5,139 bases of DNA, from positions 1-5,139 of IMG/VR virus record IMGVR_UViG_2751185961_000001. One strand, written 5' to 3'. The notes beneath the pieces are model-generated. The model searched no databases. It worked only from the letters and a program-made list of their open reading frames with translations, and had not been told where the DNA came from. Below are positions 1-5,139 of this stretch, one piece after another (within the stretch, counting starts at the first letter, position 1; each line of letters opens with the position of its first letter). The position numbers and the translations under genes are program-made. The stretch comes from a virus (lineage: Duplodnaviria; Heunggongvirae; Uroviricota; Caudoviricetes).

Positions 1-77
1 TCCACTTTGCAAGCGCCGCCACAAAATACCCAGCCAACAGACAACAAAAAAATCACTCCCCAGCATTAACGCATTAA

Positions 78-103
78 CCCGGCCTCAGCGCCGGGTTTTT
101 GTT
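78..103 (+). terminator. Rho-independent terminator, probably closing an upstream + strand (immunity-region) transcript
   Basis: Stem CCCGGC (78-83) pairs with GCCGGG (90-95) around a 6-nt loop, followed by TTTTTGTTG (96-104). The reverse complement has no U-tract, so it is + strand specific. Stop codons in two frames (67-69, 72-74) sit just upstream, consistent with the 3' end of a gene that starts before the window. Confidence 0.6.
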
Positions 104-312
104 GCCTGCACATAACTATCAGGACAGCACCTGCCAGCCAGCCCAAGCCTCTGATTAAATTACTATAATTCTTAATACAACTCCCATATCCCGCCATCTC
201 GTCACCACCTACTTCGCTCGTTTTTCGAACTTTTCAGCACACCATCCTGCTGTTTCCCCCGCCTTAAGTAAGCAAACCCATCGCGGGGAAAACTATTTAC
301 ACAAAAAAATCA

Positions 313-390
313 TACACATAACGTGTCACACCCTTATTTTACACATTTTGTGATTGACCATTAAATCACAATATGTGACTATTATTTCCA
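313..390 (+). promoter_or_regulatory. Putative pL-like early promoter with overlapping operator palindromes
   Basis: Candidate -35 TTGACC (355-360) and -10 TATTAT (380-385), with a rather long 19-bp spacer. A 24-bp palindrome TTGTGATT-N8-AATCACAA (348-371) overlaps the -35. A second near-palindrome TCACA-ATA-TGTGA (366-378) and a related site GTGTCACA (323-330) share the half-site TGTGAY/RTCACA. About 190 nt upstream of the N-like gene start. Confidence 0.4.
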
Positions 391-428
391 TCAGCAGGAC
401 GCTGGTAGCCAAACGGAAAAGATTGGCA

Positions 429-476
429 GGCTCTTTAAACAACGTCGAACACTCGACTACGTGGCTGAAAAGCCAG
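429..476 (+). promoter_or_regulatory. Putative nutL-like site (boxA plus candidate boxB hairpins) in the N leader
   Basis: GGCTCTTTAAACAA (429-442) resembles the boxA consensus CGCTCTTTA / rrn TGCTCTTTAACAA. Two short hairpins follow: GTCGA-ACAC-TCGAC (444-457), and TGGCT-GAAA-AGCCA (462-475), which has a purine-rich loop like lambda boxB. Position between promoter and N gene is as expected for nutL. Confidence 0.4.
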
Positions 477-573
477 ATCACCCAACCACATAAGCTGTGG
501 GATGCAATGCCGAAGCAACCGTCTCAGGAGGAGCTTCGAGATTGCATCGCCAAAGTTTATTCGGGAGGAATCT

Positions 574-846
574 ATGTCCAGAAAAACAGAATTTAAAGGC
601 ACCGCAGCTTCTCGCCGTAGAGCTCGTCGCGCAAACCTGCAAAGTCAGGAGTCGATTAGCTCCGACAAGCTACACAGGCCAACCCCTTCACGAGTGGTCT
701 TGCAATGCAAGCGCAAACCAGCAATGAGAGCAGAAGTTATAACTCTGACAACGTTGACCAGAAAATATGAAGGTTCAACTTGTCTTCCAAACGTAGCCAT
801 TTACGCTGCAGGCTACCGTAAATCCAAACAACTGACAGCAAGATGA
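574..846 (+). CDS. N: Transcription antitermination protein N (phage 21 / P22-type)
   Basis: 90-aa basic protein; ATG at 574 preceded by GGGAGG (563-568) with 5-nt spacing. N-terminal arginine-rich motif KGTAASRRRARRANL closely resembles the phage 21 N boxB-binding peptide GTAKSRYKARRAEL and the lambda/P22 N ARMs (recalled from literature). The C-terminus AIYAAGYRKSKQLTAR resembles recalled N-family C-termini. Sits just downstream of the operator/promoter and boxA-like element. The in-frame upstream ATG at 502 lacks a good RBS. Confidence 0.7.
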   Translation: MSRKTEFKGTAASRRRARRANLQSQESISSDKLHRPTPSRVVLQCKRKPAMRAEVITLTTLTRKYEGSTCLPNVAIYAAGYRKSKQLTAR

Positions 847-907
847 CTTGTGTTGGTCGCCAGAAAATGAAATTAGGCAGCAAACCACTTATTTGAGAGG
901 AATTAAT

Positions 908-1531
908 ATGTCATCAATCCGCTTAACTACGAGAATGAAAGAGGAAATCGCTCGTAACGCTTTAATTAAGTCCGGGGTGTTCACTGAACTTGAAGAAGTA
1001 ACAAAGTTAAAGAACCAGCTTGCACTTGACGCCAGAGTTATTGCGTTTGGCGGGAAAAAGAAAACCGAAGGAGTGGACCAGCTGGCATCAAAGTTAATGG
1101 CTGCAAGTGAGGAACTTCAAAAGCTGGGATGTTCATTTTACTCATGCGATGTCAGTTCATGTTCGATTTATCTGACTGTATCTGGAAGAAGGGTTGGCTG
1201 GCATTCATACGGAAAAGACGGCAACGGTGAAGATATATTGCTCCCTACCCCCGACAAAGATAAATGCATGTTTGACGCAGAACACAAAATAACAAAAAGG
1301 TTTGATGAAATCTGCGCATTGCAACAAAAACTTGAAGCCAGGAAAAAGGATATAGAATCAAACGTATGGGCTGCTTTGAACTCAGTCACAACAGTTAAGC
1401 GACTTATTGAAGTTTGGCCTGAAAGCAAAGAGTTGCTACCAAAAGAAGCAGATAAAGCAAGTGCAGCACTTCCTGCTTTACGGGTAGAAGATTTGAATAA
1501 GATGATTGGACTTCCTTCCGAGGCCGCATAA
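908..1531 (+). CDS. Hypothetical protein (207 aa) in the variable cargo slot between N and cIII; cysteine cluster C-x4-C-x4-C
   Basis: ATG at 908 with RBS GAGAGGA (895-901) at 7-nt spacing. The ORF is long and clean, and visibly more AT-rich than its neighbours. Contains GCSFYSCDVSSCSIY (Cys 75/80/85) plus His99, Cys120, His126, flanked by charged helical-looking segments. I recognise no family. Its own intrinsic terminator overlaps the stop codon. Confidence 0.6.
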   Translation: MSSIRLTTRMKEEIARNALIKSGVFTELEEVTKLKNQLALDARVIAFGGKKKTEGVDQLASKLMAASEELQKLGCSFYSCDVSSCSIYLTVSGRRVGWHSYGKDGNGEDILLPTPDKDKCMFDAEHKITKRFDEICALQQKLEARKKDIESNVWAALNSVTTVKRLIEVWPESKELLPKEADKASAALPALRVEDLNKMIGLPSEAA

Positions 1532-1546
1532 TCGGCCTTTATTTTT
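1521..1546 (+). terminator. Rho-independent terminator (tL1-like) at the end of the 207-aa gene
   Basis: Stem AGGCCG (1521-1526) pairs with CGGCCT (1533-1538); the 6-nt loop CATAAT contains the TAA stop codon (1529-1531); followed by TTTATTTTT (1538-1546). + strand specific. Confidence 0.6.
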
Positions 1547-1575
1547 GGCATAAACAACAGAATAAACACTGCACT

Positions 1576-1603
1576 GTGTATTCATTCCAACGAGTGAATA
1601 CAC
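1576..1603 (+). promoter_or_regulatory. Perfect 9-bp inverted repeat (operator-like site or RNA hairpin) in the intergenic region before cIII
   Basis: GTGTATTCA (1576-1584) and TGAATACAC (1595-1603) are exact reverse complements around a 10-nt spacer. No U-tract follows, so it is not a classical terminator. GGAG lies immediately downstream. Confidence 0.35.
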
Positions 1604-1665
1604 GGAGCAATGTCGCTCGTAACCAAACAGGAGCCGACTTGTTCTGATTATTGGAAATCTTCTTT

Positions 1666-1690
1666 GCCCTCCAGTGTGAGGGCCTTTTTA
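1666..1690 (+). terminator. Rho-independent terminator-like hairpin (tL2-like) upstream of cIII
   Basis: Stem GCCCTC (1666-1671) pairs with GAGGGC (1678-1683) around loop CAGTGT, followed by CTTTTTA (1684-1690). A weaker hairpin AACGC / GCGTT (1704-1723) followed by a T-rich run lies just after it. Confidence 0.5.
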
Positions 1691-1751
1691 TATGCATACC
1701 AATAACGCTTCACTCGAGGCGTTTTCGTTATGTATAAATAAGGAGCACACC

Positions 1752-1877
1752 ATGCAATATGCCATTGCAGGGTGGCCTGTTGCTGGCTGCCCTTCCGAAT
1801 CTTTACTTGAACGAATCACCCGTAAATTACGTGACGGATGGAAAAGAGTTGAGGTCTTATTATGCGCAATGAAATAG
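1752..1877 (+). CDS. cIII: cIII protein (FtsH inhibitor) with a short, divergent C-terminus
   Basis: 41 aa, MQYAIAGWPVAGCPSESLLERITRKLRDGWKRVEVLLCAMK. The first ~31 residues match my recollection of lambda cIII (MQYAIAGWPVAGCPSESLLERITRKLRAGWKR...) almost exactly, including the amphipathic ESLLERITRKLR core. RBS AGGAG (1741-1745) is 6 nt upstream of the ATG. Below the 60-aa cutoff of the ORF track; the listed ORF 1692..1877 is an N-terminally extended version of the same frame. Confidence 0.65.
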   Translation: MQYAIAGWPVAGCPSESLLERITRKLRDGWKRVEVLLCAMK

Positions 1878-2014
1878 CCATCAATCACCAGATGCTTCGT
1901 GCTGCACAAAACAAAGCAGTAATAGCCAGATTTATTGGTGATTCAAAAATGTGGCTTGAAGCAAATAAAGCGATGAAATCAGCTATCAACCTTCCGTGGT
2001 ATCGCAGGAAATGA
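1862..2014 (+). CDS. kil: Kil-like host cell-division inhibitor peptide (50 aa)
   Basis: ATG at 1862 overlaps the cIII 3' end by 16 nt, as kil overlaps cIII in lambda. Translation: MRNEIAINHQMLRAAQNKAVIARFIGDSKMWLEANKAMKSAINLPWYRRK. The segment IARFIGDSKMWLEA resembles my uncertain recollection of lambda Kil (…IATFIGDEKMFREA…). Size and position fit. Not in the ORF track (under 60 aa). Confidence 0.45.
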   Translation: MRNEIAINHQMLRAAQNKAVIARFIGDSKMWLEANKAMKSAINLPWYRRK

Positions 2015-2118
2015 GTTTTACAGATAACTGGTCAGACGAAGAATTCATTCGTCAGATGAACAAAATGCTCAATCAGCACAAAGAACAGGAGAAAGATGAT
2101 GATTCTGACTCTGAATGA
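2011..2118 (+). CDS. Small hypothetical protein (35 aa), acidic C-terminus
   Basis: ATG at 2011 overlaps the stop of the Kil-like ORF (ATGA), and its 3' end overlaps the next gene by 23 nt. Translation: MSFTDNWSDEEFIRQMNKMLNQHKEQEKDDDSDSE. No independent SD sequence; could be a coupled gene or spurious. Confidence 0.3.
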   Translation: MSFTDNWSDEEFIRQMNKMLNQHKEQEKDDDSDSE

Positions 2119-2407
2119 TAAGCGTGAAATATCGCAAATAATCGCAAGTTTTACTGATAAAGATTACGAACGAATCAACAGTGAAGTTGATCGCCTCTGC
2201 AAACGTTGCGACCCAATAAGCGAAATGCTTCGCTCATATAAACCAGATGAACACACTAAGGACGCTATCGACTGGCTGGAAGATGATGACTGTAACTATC
2301 AGGAAAAAGCCGCTGAATGGTTCTGGGATGCAATAACCGAAAGAGTTAAGGCTGAATATGCCTTCGCAATATTCAAACGCAGACATATTTATGGAGAAGC
2401 AGCATGA
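2096..2407 (+). CDS. Hypothetical acidic protein (103 aa), translationally coupled to recT
   Basis: ATG at 2096 with RBS AGGAG (2087-2091) at 4-nt spacing. Its stop TGA overlaps the recT start (ATGA at 2404-2407). Asp/Glu/Trp-rich (…DWLEDDDCNYQEKAAEWFWDAITERVKAEYAFAIFKRR…). Occupies the position where Gam or Abc-type RecBCD modulators sit in lambda and P22, but I see no similarity to lambda Gam. Confidence 0.6.
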   Translation: MMILTLNDKREISQIIASFTDKDYERINSEVDRLCKRCDPISEMLRSYKPDEHTKDAIDWLEDDDCNYQEKAAEWFWDAITERVKAEYAFAIFKRRHIYGEAA

Positions 2408-3315
2408 GCAATATCGTTGAATTCGTTAAACAGCAAGAGCAGTTATTCTGCGGAGCATTGACTGAACAGACGGTGACATGGGCTAAGGAAAGCCAGTTTG
2501 CAATTCAGTATTTCCAGAAAAACGATTACCTGGCTAAAACAGCACTGGCAAATCCAACCAGCGCACAGAACGCCATCATCAATGTTGCGGCGATCGGAAT
2601 CACCTTAAACCCGGCCAGCAAACTTGCTTATCTAGTTCCGCGCGACGGCATTGTTTGCCTTGATATCAGCTATATGGGATTGCTCCATATTGCAATGGAG
2701 TCTGGTGTTATCTCATGGGGTCAGGCAAAACTTGTTCATGCTAACGATACCTATGAGTCAAACGGGCTTGATAAATCACCAACCCATAAATACAACGCCT
2801 TCGGTGATCGTGGTGATATCGTTGGCGTTTACTGCACAGTTAAGACGCCAGCAGGTGATTATCTAACGGAAGAGATGAGTCTGGCTGAAATTGAGGCTGT
2901 AAGGAAAACAAGCAAGGCAGCATTCAGCGATAAAGGACCATGGGTAAATCACTGGAATGAGATGGCACGAAAGACGGTCGTAAAGCGTGCAAGCAAGTAT
3001 TGGCCTAAGGCATCACGTCTTGATAGTGCTATTCACGTACTAAACGAAGAAGAAGGTGTATGGACTGAACCAGTTATGCCGCACAAATCAGAGGAAGATA
3101 TCCGCGAAGATGAACGGAAACGCCAGCAGGAAATAATGGATAAAGCACAACTTCTTTGCGATGAAATGGCTCAGGCAGAAAACATGGATGATTTGAAGCG
3201 ATATTTTGCAGAAGCATATCGCCTGACATCTGGAATGAAATTGCAGCAGAACGTACAAGCCATTTACATAGAATGCAAAGCGAAACTGGAGGTTGCCAGT
3301 GAGCAAACTGTATGA
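2404..3315 (+). CDS. recT: RecT-family single-strand annealing recombinase
   Basis: 303 aa; RBS GGAG 9 nt upstream. The segment GPWVNHWNEMARKTVVKRASKYWP closely matches the E. coli Rac RecT segment GPWVTHWEEMAKKTAIRRLFKYLP (recalled), and the N-terminal half has the RecT-like layout. Confidence 0.85.
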   Translation: MSNIVEFVKQQEQLFCGALTEQTVTWAKESQFAIQYFQKNDYLAKTALANPTSAQNAIINVAAIGITLNPASKLAYLVPRDGIVCLDISYMGLLHIAMESGVISWGQAKLVHANDTYESNGLDKSPTHKYNAFGDRGDIVGVYCTVKTPAGDYLTEEMSLAEIEAVRKTSKAAFSDKGPWVNHWNEMARKTVVKRASKYWPKASRLDSAIHVLNEEEGVWTEPVMPHKSEEDIREDERKRQQEIMDKAQLLCDEMAQAENMDDLKRYFAEAYRLTSGMKLQQNVQAIYIECKAKLEVASEQTV

Positions 3316-3781
3316 AATAGCCAATGAATACGCAAAGCTGATGGATTCAGATTTAGAGCCAGAGATGATTGCTGACACAATAGAAGGCATGGAAGGAGAA
3401 TTTACCGATAAAATAGAGCAACTTCTTGCCATTATTAAAAATGAATCTGGTTATGCTGAACGCCTCAAGGACGAGGCAAAGTCACTGAATGAACGAGCAG
3501 CAGTAATTCAAAATAAGATTGATAGCATTATGGCATATATAGCGTCATCGCTTGAAATGGTTGGCAAGAAAAAGATTCGAGCAGGTATTCACCAGGTAAC
3601 AATCCGCAAACCGTCAGAAACTGTAGAAATCATCGACTCAAGCGCCATTCCTCCTGAATACGTTGAGTTTGAAACGACAATTAAAGCCGACAAGTTGGCA
3701 ATCAAGCACCAACTAAAAGCAGGAATAAATATCCCAGGTGCTCAAATCAAGGTTGGGAAACCTTCACTTCTTATCAAATAA
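3299..3781 (+). CDS. Siphovirus Gp157-family protein
   Basis: The frame is open from 3293 (TTG); the best start is GTG at 3299, with GGAGG (3288-3292) 6 nt upstream. It overlaps the recT 3' end by 17 nt. Landmarks (N-terminal KLYEIANEY, central GKKKIRAG, C-terminal IPPEYVEF) match my recollection of the Sipho_Gp157 family, which typically sits next to RecT/Erf/Sak recombinases. Confidence 0.65.
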   Translation: MSKLYEIANEYAKLMDSDLEPEMIADTIEGMEGEFTDKIEQLLAIIKNESGYAERLKDEAKSLNERAAVIQNKIDSIMAYIASSLEMVGKKKIRAGIHQVTIRKPSETVEIIDSSAIPPEYVEFETTIKADKLAIKHQLKAGINIPGAQIKVGKPSLLIK

Positions 3782-3792
3782 CGGTATCGCCT

Positions 3793-4107
3793 ATGAAAAA
3801 GACTCCATGGGAGAAATGGGAAGTCGATTTCTTGCGCGAAGTAGCGGCGACAATGCCAGTTGAAGTTATCGCTGAAAAACTGGAAAGGACTGAAAAAGCA
3901 GTAATGGCGAAAGCAACAAGGATTGGCGCTGACATTGTTAGCCGACTTCGTGGAAGACGATGGACAAGAGCCGAAGTATCACTTTTCGGTAAGTTCTCCG
4001 CAGAAGAAATAGCAATTGCAACCTGCCGCTCAATTTATTCAGTAAGAGCTATGCGATACAAGCTAAAAAAACTCGATGAAGAAAGAGCAGGCATACGAAT
4101 AAATTAA
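3793..4107 (+). CDS. Hypothetical protein (104 aa) with two tandem helix-turn-helix-like repeats
   Basis: Internal duplication: WEKWEVDFLREVAATMPVEVIAEKLERTEKAVMAKATRIG versus RRWTRAEVSLFGKFSAEEIAIATCRSIYSVRAMRYKLKKL. Both follow the pattern W-x2-E-x2-L…E(V/I)IA…R(T/S)…AV, reminiscent of SANT/Myb-type helix-turn-helix repeats. Weak SD. Confidence 0.55.
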   Translation: MKKTPWEKWEVDFLREVAATMPVEVIAEKLERTEKAVMAKATRIGADIVSRLRGRRWTRAEVSLFGKFSAEEIAIATCRSIYSVRAMRYKLKKLDEERAGIRIN

Positions 4108-4123
4108 CATGGGGTAATTAACA

Positions 4124-4405
4124 ATGAAGCTAAACATCGACCTCGGAAAATACGTTATTACCGGAACCAAACACGACCTGATTCTTAGCGAAAGAGGAAT
4201 TATCAAAGAAGGCGAGAATGCAGGGAAAGAAACACTAAGTCGTATCGGTTATTACAGCAAGTTTGAGCATCTGGTTAAAGAGTTATGCAACCGTGAAATC
4301 CTGTTATCTCAGGCGCAGACGCTACAGGATATTCAGCAGCATATCGAAACTTTAGGTATGTCACTTAGCATGGCTATTGACCAGTTCGTTGAGAGTAAAT
4401 CATGA
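4124..4405 (+). CDS. Hypothetical protein (93 aa)
   Basis: ATG at 4124 with GGGG 9 nt upstream; clean ORF. Its stop overlaps the next start (ATGA at 4402-4405). No family recognised. Confidence 0.5.
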
Positions 4406-4566
4406 GAGGACTTGCATACAATCCCGGCATTCTTCCGGCAGAAATGATTATTCGCCAACGCGTAAAGCCAATGCCATCGAGAGAGGAATTGCTTAAGAGA
4501 AATTCTTTTCCATCAGTAAATCAAAACAAATATCTGAATGCGATGTTGCGGAGTGGGAAGAAATGA
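4402..4566 (+). CDS. Small hypothetical protein (54 aa), translationally coupled on both sides
   Basis: ATG at 4402 overlaps the upstream stop; its TGA at 4564-4566 overlaps the ATG of the next gene at 4563-4565. Translation: [54 protein letters not shown]. Not in the ORF track (under 60 aa). Confidence 0.4.
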
Positions 4567-5048
4567 AACAAATGTCACTAATTGAGATGGATGGATTTCT
4601 GAAAGGTAAATGCATCCCCCGAGATTTAAAGGTTAACGAAACAAACGCTGAATATCTTGTCCGTAAGTTCGGTGAACTTGAATCAAAACTAGAAACGGCG
4701 TTGCGGGAGTGTCGTTCTTCTGGAATCACGATTGATAACCTTGAGGCCAAGTGCGCGGCGCTGGCAGCGGAGAGTGCGGGGATGAAGAAGTTCTGCAAAG
4801 ACGCTGCATTCGATGCCGATTACGAAGCAGAGCTAGGTATGGAGCGTGGTGGATTCAGTGATGCGCTTAACGAAATCAAAACCCCAGCCACCGATGCTTT
4901 CCTGGCTGAAATTGAACGCAAAGCAATCCGCAAGTTTATTAACAGCATTGAACACATCCTGCGTGACAAGCTGTCACCGTATGACACCGAAGAGATGCTT
5001 GAGGCTATGCGTATTTTTCTGGAAGAACAGGGAGTTGAGCAAAAATGA
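4563..5048 (+). CDS. Hypothetical protein (161 aa), predicted helical / coiled-coil
   Basis: ATG at 4563 with GGAG 9 nt upstream. Charged, Ala/Glu/Leu-rich sequence. Its stop overlaps the next start (ATGA at 5045-5048). Possibly an early-region Ea-type accessory protein, but that is a guess from position only. Confidence 0.55.
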
Positions 5049-5139
5049 CGATCACAAAACAACGAGTAGAAAAAATCATATATCGCCATGAAATGGGACT
5101 GAACAGCGATGTCACTGCCGAAGAGGTTTATGACCTGGC
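5045..5139 (+). CDS. Hypothetical protein, 5' fragment (continues past the window end)
   Basis: ATG at 5045 overlaps the upstream stop. The frame stays open to the window edge ([31 protein letters not shown]…). Confidence 0.4.
   Translation, partial: MTITKQRVEKIIYRHEMGLNSDVTAEEVYDL

Follow-up and report, generated by a model that had tools for sequence, protein, structure and literature searches.

We analyzed a 5,139-nucleotide stretch of DNA from a virus of the class Caudoviricetes (IMG/VR record IMGVR_UViG_2751185961_000001, positions 1 to 5,139; hereafter referred to as the window), the + strand of which carries the early-left operon of a lambdoid E. coli prophage, and focused on the open reading frame (ORF) at positions 908-1531 of that strand, between the genes N and cIII. 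This ORF, hereafter referred to as nmad5, almost certainly belongs to the Nmad5 family, and it very probably forms an optional early mosaic cassette made up of the gene, its ribosome-binding site and a shared hairpin. The best overall explanation, which we consider fairly probable, is that an Nmad5 protein encoded on such an optional early cassette serves as an accessory of phage DNA metabolism. The practical outcome is a correction: the "unrecognised cysteine-cluster protein" of a preliminary description of this DNA belongs to a family that was already catalogued, and its cysteines are of no consequence.

Family assignment of the 207-aa protein

The preliminary description could not place the protein in any family, a statement that profile searches overturned. 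The 207-amino-acid (aa) product matched the Pfam family Nmad5 (PF18757, "nucleotide modification associated domain 5"; IPR040835) with E = 5.3e-68 and 229.6 bits against a gathering cut-off of 27, and also matched phrog_1965 (E = 2.3e-80). The Pfam alignment ran end to end, pairing residues 4-203 with the entire profile of 206 positions, and the signature residues of the family were all present (R5, R43, G48, G93, T162, L166, W170-P171-E172, L176, P178, L196-N197 and G201-L202). The ORF begins with ATG and comprises 207 codons followed by TAA, and its predicted N-terminus aligned with the N-termini of the homologues. A copy that is 99.7% identical in DNA bears the RefSeq PGAP name "Nmad5 family putative nucleotide modification protein"; both the family and this annotation of near-identical copies are thus already known.

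Homologues of nmad5 were found in 221 phage records, and the gene itself occurs at 91-97% identity in Kapi1, HK542, mEp235, PhiR12 and many Stx-converting phages. Of 5426 complete E. coli genomes, 201 contained at least 80% of nmad5. When 1.84 billion representatives were searched with a profile, 2694 clusters were returned (E ≤ 1e-3; clusters at 50% identity), and nearly all of the best 150 of these 2694 were stand-alone proteins of about 200 aa (190-220), a single-domain phage and prophage architecture to which the 207-aa product of nmad5 conforms. Genes for base-modification partners were detected neither by a Pfam scan of the window nor in the annotation of the complete HK542 genome. Since a modification-gene setting is context and not part of the sequence definition of Nmad5, the membership of nmad5 stands.

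Several other searches gave no match: NCBIfam returned nothing for the protein, no family among the PADLOC-DB v2 defense models was hit at E ≤ 0.1, and similarity to Ral or SieB was absent from the Pfam and PHROG scans, which returned just Nmad5 and phrog_1965. Two further candidates were rejected. The "NMAD" defense domain validated by DefensePredictor is Nmad2 (PF18753), not Nmad5, and kinship with the neighboring Gp157/Mu-Gam-like coiled-coil end-binding protein was negative in hhalign.

A variable accessory slot between N and cIII

The features on which the following comparisons rely are given below by their positions in the window.

574-846 (+): N antiterminator gene, upstream flank of the slot (PF25694, E = 1.6e-31; phrog_271)
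847-907 (+): spacer between N and nmad5; neither a terminator nor a promoter predicted, and no stable RNA fold
897-900 (+): Shine-Dalgarno sequence GAGG, 7 nt 5' of the ATG at 908, as read from the sequence
908-1531 (+): nmad5, stand-alone 207-aa Nmad5-family protein (PF18757, phrog_1965)
1130-1162 (+): C-x4-C-x4-C motif, codons 75-85, allele-specific and unconserved
1397-1516 (+): C-terminal signature K-R-L-I-E-V-W-P-E-S-K-E-L-L-P ... L-P-A-L-x-V-x-D-L-N-x-x-I-G-L-P, codons 164-203, from conservation in 102 members
1520-1546 (+): intrinsic-terminator-like hairpin and T-tract, from the terminator scan; 7-bp stem, 1520-1526/1533-1539
1739-1797 (+): cIII thermoregulator RNA, spanning the cIII start (Rfam RF01804, 88.5 bits, E = 2.4e-21)
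1752-1877 (+): cIII, downstream flank of the slot (PF02061, E = 5.7e-21)

The location of the gene between N (PF25694) and cIII (PF02061; RF01804) was given correctly in the preliminary description, and the RF01804 match across the cIII start confirms the cIII assignment and indicates that the regulatory RNA is conserved in the window. Its view of the N-to-cIII interval as a variable accessory slot was likewise borne out, with nmad5 as one alternative occupant, by comparison with phages HK140 and mEpX1 and with 80 close loci, that is, viral-contig (IMG/VR) loci whose nmad5 gene shows 91% identity or more. HK140 agrees with the window in the 3' end of N and in the RecT module, and its slot holds sieB, on the opposite strand, together with ral (66 aa); homology to the window is lost at 846, which marks the left boundary of the slot. 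The slot of mEpX1 contains Nun and small ORFs. HK542 possesses a lambda-type N and an Erf/Abc2 module, yet carries the same nmad5. The surroundings also varied among the 80 close loci, of which 12 shared the N allele of the window, 29 kil, three cIII (at least 80% coverage) and 12 RecT and Gp157. Gene content across relatives thus upheld the suggestion of cargo-like variability in the slot.

The gene does not simply replace Abc2 or SieB, as it coexists with Abc2 in HK542 and, in one genome, with SieB. A role as an anti-RecBCD replacement was considered and is weakened by the co-occurrence with Abc2 in HK542.

In the Stx2a phage PV12-16, a 1309-bp IS3-family element (positions 1696-3004 of locus L175), flanked by a 4-bp target duplication, splits nmad5 after the equivalent of window position 1014 (about codon 35), and 48 Stx2a-converting phage records showed the same partial match, covering residues 34-207. 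Given this split and the viable deletion of the Dhillonvirus homologue described below, nmad5 is dispensable. The ORF is nevertheless a real gene under purifying selection, with a ratio of nonsynonymous to synonymous substitution rates (dN/dS) of 0.24 overall across 58 intact alleles and of 0.15-0.26 in each quarter. Clustered allele differences had hinted at diversifying selection at residues 50-100; this was rejected, as dN/dS was 0.26 there, and the proportion of synonymous differences was raised mid-gene, a sign of recombination rather than of diversifying selection.

The hairpin after nmad5

The preliminary description credited the gene with its own strong terminator and noted the stop codon in the loop. 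The last detail is accurate: the loop CATAAT contains the TAA (1529-1531), and TATTTTT lies downstream. The strength was overstated, with a fold of -13 kcal/mol, z = -1.8, and 8 of 200 shuffled sequences folding equally well. Nor is the element the gene's own, because the same hairpin and T-tract stand 3' of other genes in mEpX1 (a small ORF) and HK140 (ral), in which homology to the window restarts at 1516 and 1534, respectively.

The hairpin was kept in all of the 80 close loci. In four of them, the ral 3' end with its hairpin and T-tract lies directly 5' of the nmad5 ribosome-binding site; the junction falls at a TTATTT microhomology about 20 nt 5' of the ATG, so that a hairpin is found on both sides of the cassette. 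The 20 nt preceding the ATG were identical across the listed upstream variants of the 80 loci, even where another gene lies upstream. Being common to unrelated slot genes, the hairpin is a slot-boundary element rather than one private to nmad5, and it plausibly provides, as judged from these junctions, a short homology or recombination linker for cassette exchange.

Two more terminator-like hairpins with T-tracts lie ahead of cIII, at 1666-1683 (T-tract to 1689) and 1704-1723 (to 1729), which brings the number to three within the 220 nt between nmad5 and cIII; the equivalent of the 1666-1683 hairpin is annotated in mEpX1 as a rho-independent terminator. By position we take this three-hairpin cluster to resemble the tL2 terminator cluster of lambda. 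A separate, odd observation concerns a terminator variant in Kapi1 (around 3677-3696) and seven IMG/VR loci, which reads GAGGTCG...CGTCCTT and has a C-G stem pair changed to T and T; the double change yields a U-U mismatch that breaks the stem and is not compensatory.

Conserved residues and predicted structure

An alignment of 102 diverse Nmad5 members revealed family-wide conservation of an N-terminal R-L-T..I..N-A motif, R43-x4-G-G, G93 and, most strongly, a C-terminal block from T162 to G201-L202. N197 was invariant, and L166, W170, P171, E172, L176, P178, L196, G201 and L202 were conserved in at least 90% of the members, as were R5, R43, G48, G93 and T162. Conserved polar residues were few (R5, R43, T162, E172 and N197).

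The AlphaFold2 model, built on an alignment of 27 sequences, had a mean predicted local distance difference test score (pLDDT) of 84.5 and a predicted template modeling score of 0.69. Helices were predicted at 8-22, 24-47 and 50-72, followed by a small beta-sheet at about 86-125, a long helix at 127-158 and short C-terminal helices; the pLDDT fell below 50 at residues 183-191 and was also low over the last residues. In this prediction, the helices run antiparallel and form a coiled-coil bundle that bears a small beta-sheet, and the highly conserved C-terminal peptide is in part disordered. Residues 183-191 had this low score although the surrounding positions are conserved, and a conserved but low-confidence C-terminal segment in a model is typical of one that orders on a partner.

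A structure prediction followed by a Foldseek search had been proposed as the way to place the protein, and it did not do so: the model had no match in the PDB under E = 0.2, and sequence and profile searches of the PDB were empty. The structural matches in BFVD were exclusively other Nmad5 proteins or uncharacterized phage proteins. The model contains no recognizable enzyme or catalytic fold.

The preliminary description had also drawn attention to a C-x4-C-x4-C cluster with nearby histidines that suggested metal binding. The cluster exists in this allele (Cys75, Cys80 and Cys85, with His99 and His126 close by); the metal site does not follow from it. The states at positions 75, 80 and 85 in the 80 close loci were C-Y-T in 47, C-C-T in 16, C-C-C in six, C-C-S in six and other combinations in five. 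None of the three cysteines was conserved among 27 enterobacterial homologues, and the 102 diverse members mostly had R or K, aliphatic residues, and Y, S or D at these positions. No cysteine whatever was found in 20 of the 102 members, and Cys120 occurred in 11. As the Cys and His ligands are not conserved, a structural or catalytic metal site is unsupported.

The protein does look soluble, as had been stated, with a maximum 19-residue Kyte-Doolittle score of 1.03, a grand average of hydropathy of -0.32 and no hydrophobic segment. The gene was also said to be more AT-rich than its neighbors, which composition contradicts: its G+C content of 0.423 compares with 0.436 for the entire window, and several neighbors are lower (kil, 0.405; the phrog_3486 gene, 0.41; gp157, 0.40), with N (0.476) and cIII (0.452) higher. 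A foreign origin was considered from composition and dismissed, given how close the two values of 0.423 and 0.436 are.

Genomic company of the family

The neighborhood of Nmad5 genes was sampled at 25 diverse loci on viral contigs, which fall into 18 clusters at 70% identity, with three ORFs on each side, giving 149 ORFs. The commonest neighbor families were DUF2800 (PD-(D/E)XK), an Enc34-type single-stranded DNA-binding protein (SSB), PDDEXK_1 and family A DNA polymerase (PolA), followed by helix-turn-helix and S24 repressors. A module of DUF2800 nuclease, Enc34-type SSB, Nmad5 and PolA recurred in 5-6 of the 25 loci (IMG/VR prophage contigs L095, L115, L122, L113 and L130), with DUF2800 of about 433 aa, SSB of about 185 aa and PolA of about 690 aa. 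Nmad5 seems to be a constant part of this DUF2800/SSB/PolA module, and among the contextual hints at its function this one is the strongest. Two other loci (L153 and L159) have nmad5 3' of a CI-type repressor gene on the same strand, an early-left position like that in the window. Taken over all phages compared, Nmad5 genes are found chiefly among replication and recombination genes or directly after the repressor.

Similar company was seen in phages outside the lambdoid group. The N4-like phages Pylas and As2 encode a DNA polymerase, thymidylate synthase or ThyX, Nmad5, a PD-(D/E)XK-type protein and a primase, and Oceanospirillum phage PD0307 has a helicase, Nmad5, a nucleoside 2-deoxyribosyltransferase and a nuclease, with methylases nearby. 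In M6-like Yuavirus, the Nmad5 gene adjoins those for a 5-hydroxymethyldeoxyuridine (5-hmdU) DNA kinase and a deoxyuridine (dU) hydroxymethylase (PMC9476957), and it is from this type of setting that the family takes its name. In a published reconstitution of M6 hypermodification, the steps were assigned to gp51-gp55, and Nmad5 goes unmentioned (PMC8989533).

The complete genome of HK542, which carries nmad5, has no annotated thymidylate-synthase homologue, hmdU kinase, aGPT-Pplase or DNA methyltransferase. As a side observation on this phage, two glycosyltransferase genes and an HNH endonuclease gene (36330-38239) are situated between the lysis cassette and cos, an unusual moron position.

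The Dhillonvirus homologue and escape from Tmn

Functional data on Nmad5 in the searchable literature concern the Dhillonvirus homologue alone, and no biochemical activity has been reported there for any member of the family. The Dhillonvirus gene (SM_S22 CDS6 and SM_A8 CDS7) can be deleted, and it resisted cloning, apparently through toxicity (PMC11846954). Independent mutants that escape the Tmn defense carried K296E in SM_S22 and K216E in SM_A8, and deletion of the gene gave no escape (PMC11846954). We aligned translated SM_S22 CDS6 with the product of nmad5 and found that K296, the second K of N-T-D-K-K-L-I-K-A-W-P-E, corresponds to R165 of T-T-V-K-R-L-I-E-V-W-P-E, which is the conserved basic residue beside W-P-E, the strongest motif of the family. 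This equivalence suggests that the surface in question is relevant to one or more immune systems of the host.

Expression of nmad5

Scans of 847-907 detected neither a promoter nor a terminator, and the RNA fold of the spacer was unremarkable (z = 0.05). Since no terminator intervenes between N and nmad5 and the first hairpin lies 3' of nmad5, the gene is probably co-transcribed with N from pL, as an immediate-early gene ahead of the need for antitermination. The sieB genes of lambda and P22 have their own promoter. In view of its place in the pL operon, its orientation on the N strand and the lack of a predicted promoter of its own, nmad5 would be expected, unlike sieB, to be repressed in the lysogen.

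Possible functions of nmad5

The explanation that we favor is that nmad5 would be transcribed from pL with N as soon as infection or induction begins, and that its product would bind a partner without catalyzing a reaction, serving as an accessory or adaptor in replication, recombination or precursor supply; DNA, a phage replication protein and a conserved host protein are candidate partners. This reading draws on the predicted fold and on the SSB, polymerase, nuclease and nucleotide-precursor genes that Nmad5 genes tend to accompany. For nmad5 in particular, we propose this non-enzymatic accessory role only tentatively, as one that is quite possible. Several points weigh against it. Gene neighborhood is circumstantial, and in several phages Nmad5 genes occupy moron-like sites unrelated to replication, namely in antisense orientation with the spanin and head scaffold genes on either side (Dhillonvirus), antisense in the tail module (Vibrio phage 138) and in the terminase-portal gap (ZRG1). 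The lack of a known fold is no proof of a lack of catalysis, and residues 124-126 form a semi-conserved A-D-H motif with a possible catalytic function. Rho-dependent termination after N may undercut immediate-early expression, which is itself predicted from sequence, and no experiments on lambdoid nmad5 were found in the searchable literature.

Some of the same observations could also be read in terms of host defenses. The slot that nmad5 fills elsewhere holds ral and sieB, the gene is optional, mosaic and the first after N before any terminator, and the family includes the antisense, moron-like positions of Dhillonvirus and Vibrio phage 138. The protein might then be a counter-defense protein or decoy of the functional class of Ral, made immediate-early to inhibit an immune or nuclease system of the host, with the conserved C-terminal peptide as its inhibitory interface. 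The Dhillonvirus homologue fits such an inhibitor in being non-essential and toxic to clone, and the loss of Tmn defense upon mutation of the R165 equivalent and not upon deletion is a gain-of-function pattern; the wild-type Dhillonvirus protein, though, gives no protection from Tmn. We nonetheless regard the idea, although a serious rival, as unlikely, as the protein resembles no known anti-defense protein or DNA mimic and is not acidic (isoelectric point, 7.6), its coexistence with Abc2 and SieB speaks against simple replacement, and its embedding in conserved SSB/polymerase modules would be unusual for anti-defense cargo. The absence of diversifying selection in every region also argues against an arms-race interface. 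A wider proposal, about equally doubtful, is that Nmad5 proteins are a widespread class of non-enzyme immediate-early effectors whose C-terminal peptide would engage a conserved host or replisome target; the lambdoid cassette would then be either counter-defensive or sensed by defenses, and interchangeable with ral and sieB, and the Tmn-escape site would mark the interface. An enzyme that modifies DNA or nucleotides, altering phage bases or precursors to evade restriction, is improbable. The family was named after its association with base-modification clusters, and the 5-hmdU kinase and dU hydroxymethylase of Yuavirus, the thymidylate synthase or ThyX of the N4-like phages, the deoxyribosyltransferase of PD0307 and the A-D-H motif would all suit such an enzyme. 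The model, however, has no enzyme-like fold and its sole invariant residue falls in the lower-confidence C-terminal region, the assigned M6 steps do without Nmad5 (PMC8989533), and the HK542 annotation and the window hold no modification partners. Finally, the cysteines and histidines of this allele and the presence of sieB in the slot of relatives had suggested a metal-binding defense or superinfection-exclusion protein of the prophage, expressed in the lysogen. With all three cysteines confined to six of 80 alleles that are at least 91% identical, with cysteine-free members in the family, no PADLOC match and a pL operon position without predicted promoter, this idea is essentially excluded.

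These findings have consequences for annotation. The label "putative nucleotide modification protein" on the copies in 201 complete E. coli genomes may mislead, as lambdoid nmad5 comes without modification partners and without an enzyme-like fold. Nmad5 is very common (about 2700 clusters) and has one published genetic link, to Tmn escape, and the lambdoid copies in tractable phages (HK542, mEp235 and Kapi1) offer a convenient handle on its function.

Other features of the window

Upstream of N, a nutL-like element could be recognized:

429-438 (+): boxA, CGCTCTTTAA; HK140 annotates the equivalent boxA
444-457 (+): boxB hairpin, GTCGA-ACAC-TCGAC

Three operator-like palindromes (ACAC..GTGT or TCACA..TGTGA) surround a -35 hexamer, TTGACC (353-358), at about 313-381 (+), and this region is a putative pL/OL. 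At the left edge, window positions 1-107 (+) matched the 3' end of gp35 of HK542, a hypothetical gene that lies downstream of cI in the position of rex, and this stretch is closed by a strong, terminator-like hairpin at 76-97 (+; 8 bp, six of them GC). The gp35-like 3' end places the lysogen-expressed cargo slot of the prophage just beyond the left edge of the window. The genes 3' of cIII are kil, a phrog_3486 gene, RecT, the Gp157/Mu-Gam-like gene and other early genes. RecT recombinase (PF03837) and the overlapping Gp157/Mu-Gam-like protein (PF05565; phrog_253, "Mu Gam-like end protection") occupy 2404-3781 (+), and this RecT and Gam-like recombination module stands where lambda has exo, bet and gam, and no gene of the window was identified as an exonuclease.

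Comparison with known systems

Within its own family, the nearest system with functional data is that of Dhillonvirus, which resembles nmad5 in the N-terminal motif, the C-terminal signature and dispensability. The Dhillonvirus protein is larger, at about 253 aa, its beta region contains a large insertion, and it is only about 33% identical to the window protein over the C-terminal half. Its gene is a core gene of the genus (at least 80% of the protein was matched in 141 phage records) and lies antisense beside the head scaffold gene, whereas nmad5 of the window belongs to an early operon.

The Nmad5 proteins of Yuavirus phages of Pseudomonas are members of the same family, 24-26% identical over their full length, about 190 aa long and likewise stand-alone. 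They are encoded within a thymidine-hypermodification cluster, in contrast to nmad5 of the window, which lacks such partners, and the published pathway gives Nmad5 no step.

The cargo of this interval in lambda and P22, Ral and SieB, occupies the same slot and shows the same optional, mosaic behavior as nmad5. The likeness is one of position and not of descent, as neither protein has any sequence or family relation to Nmad5, and sieB runs on the opposite strand in HK140, whereas nmad5 is co-oriented with N.

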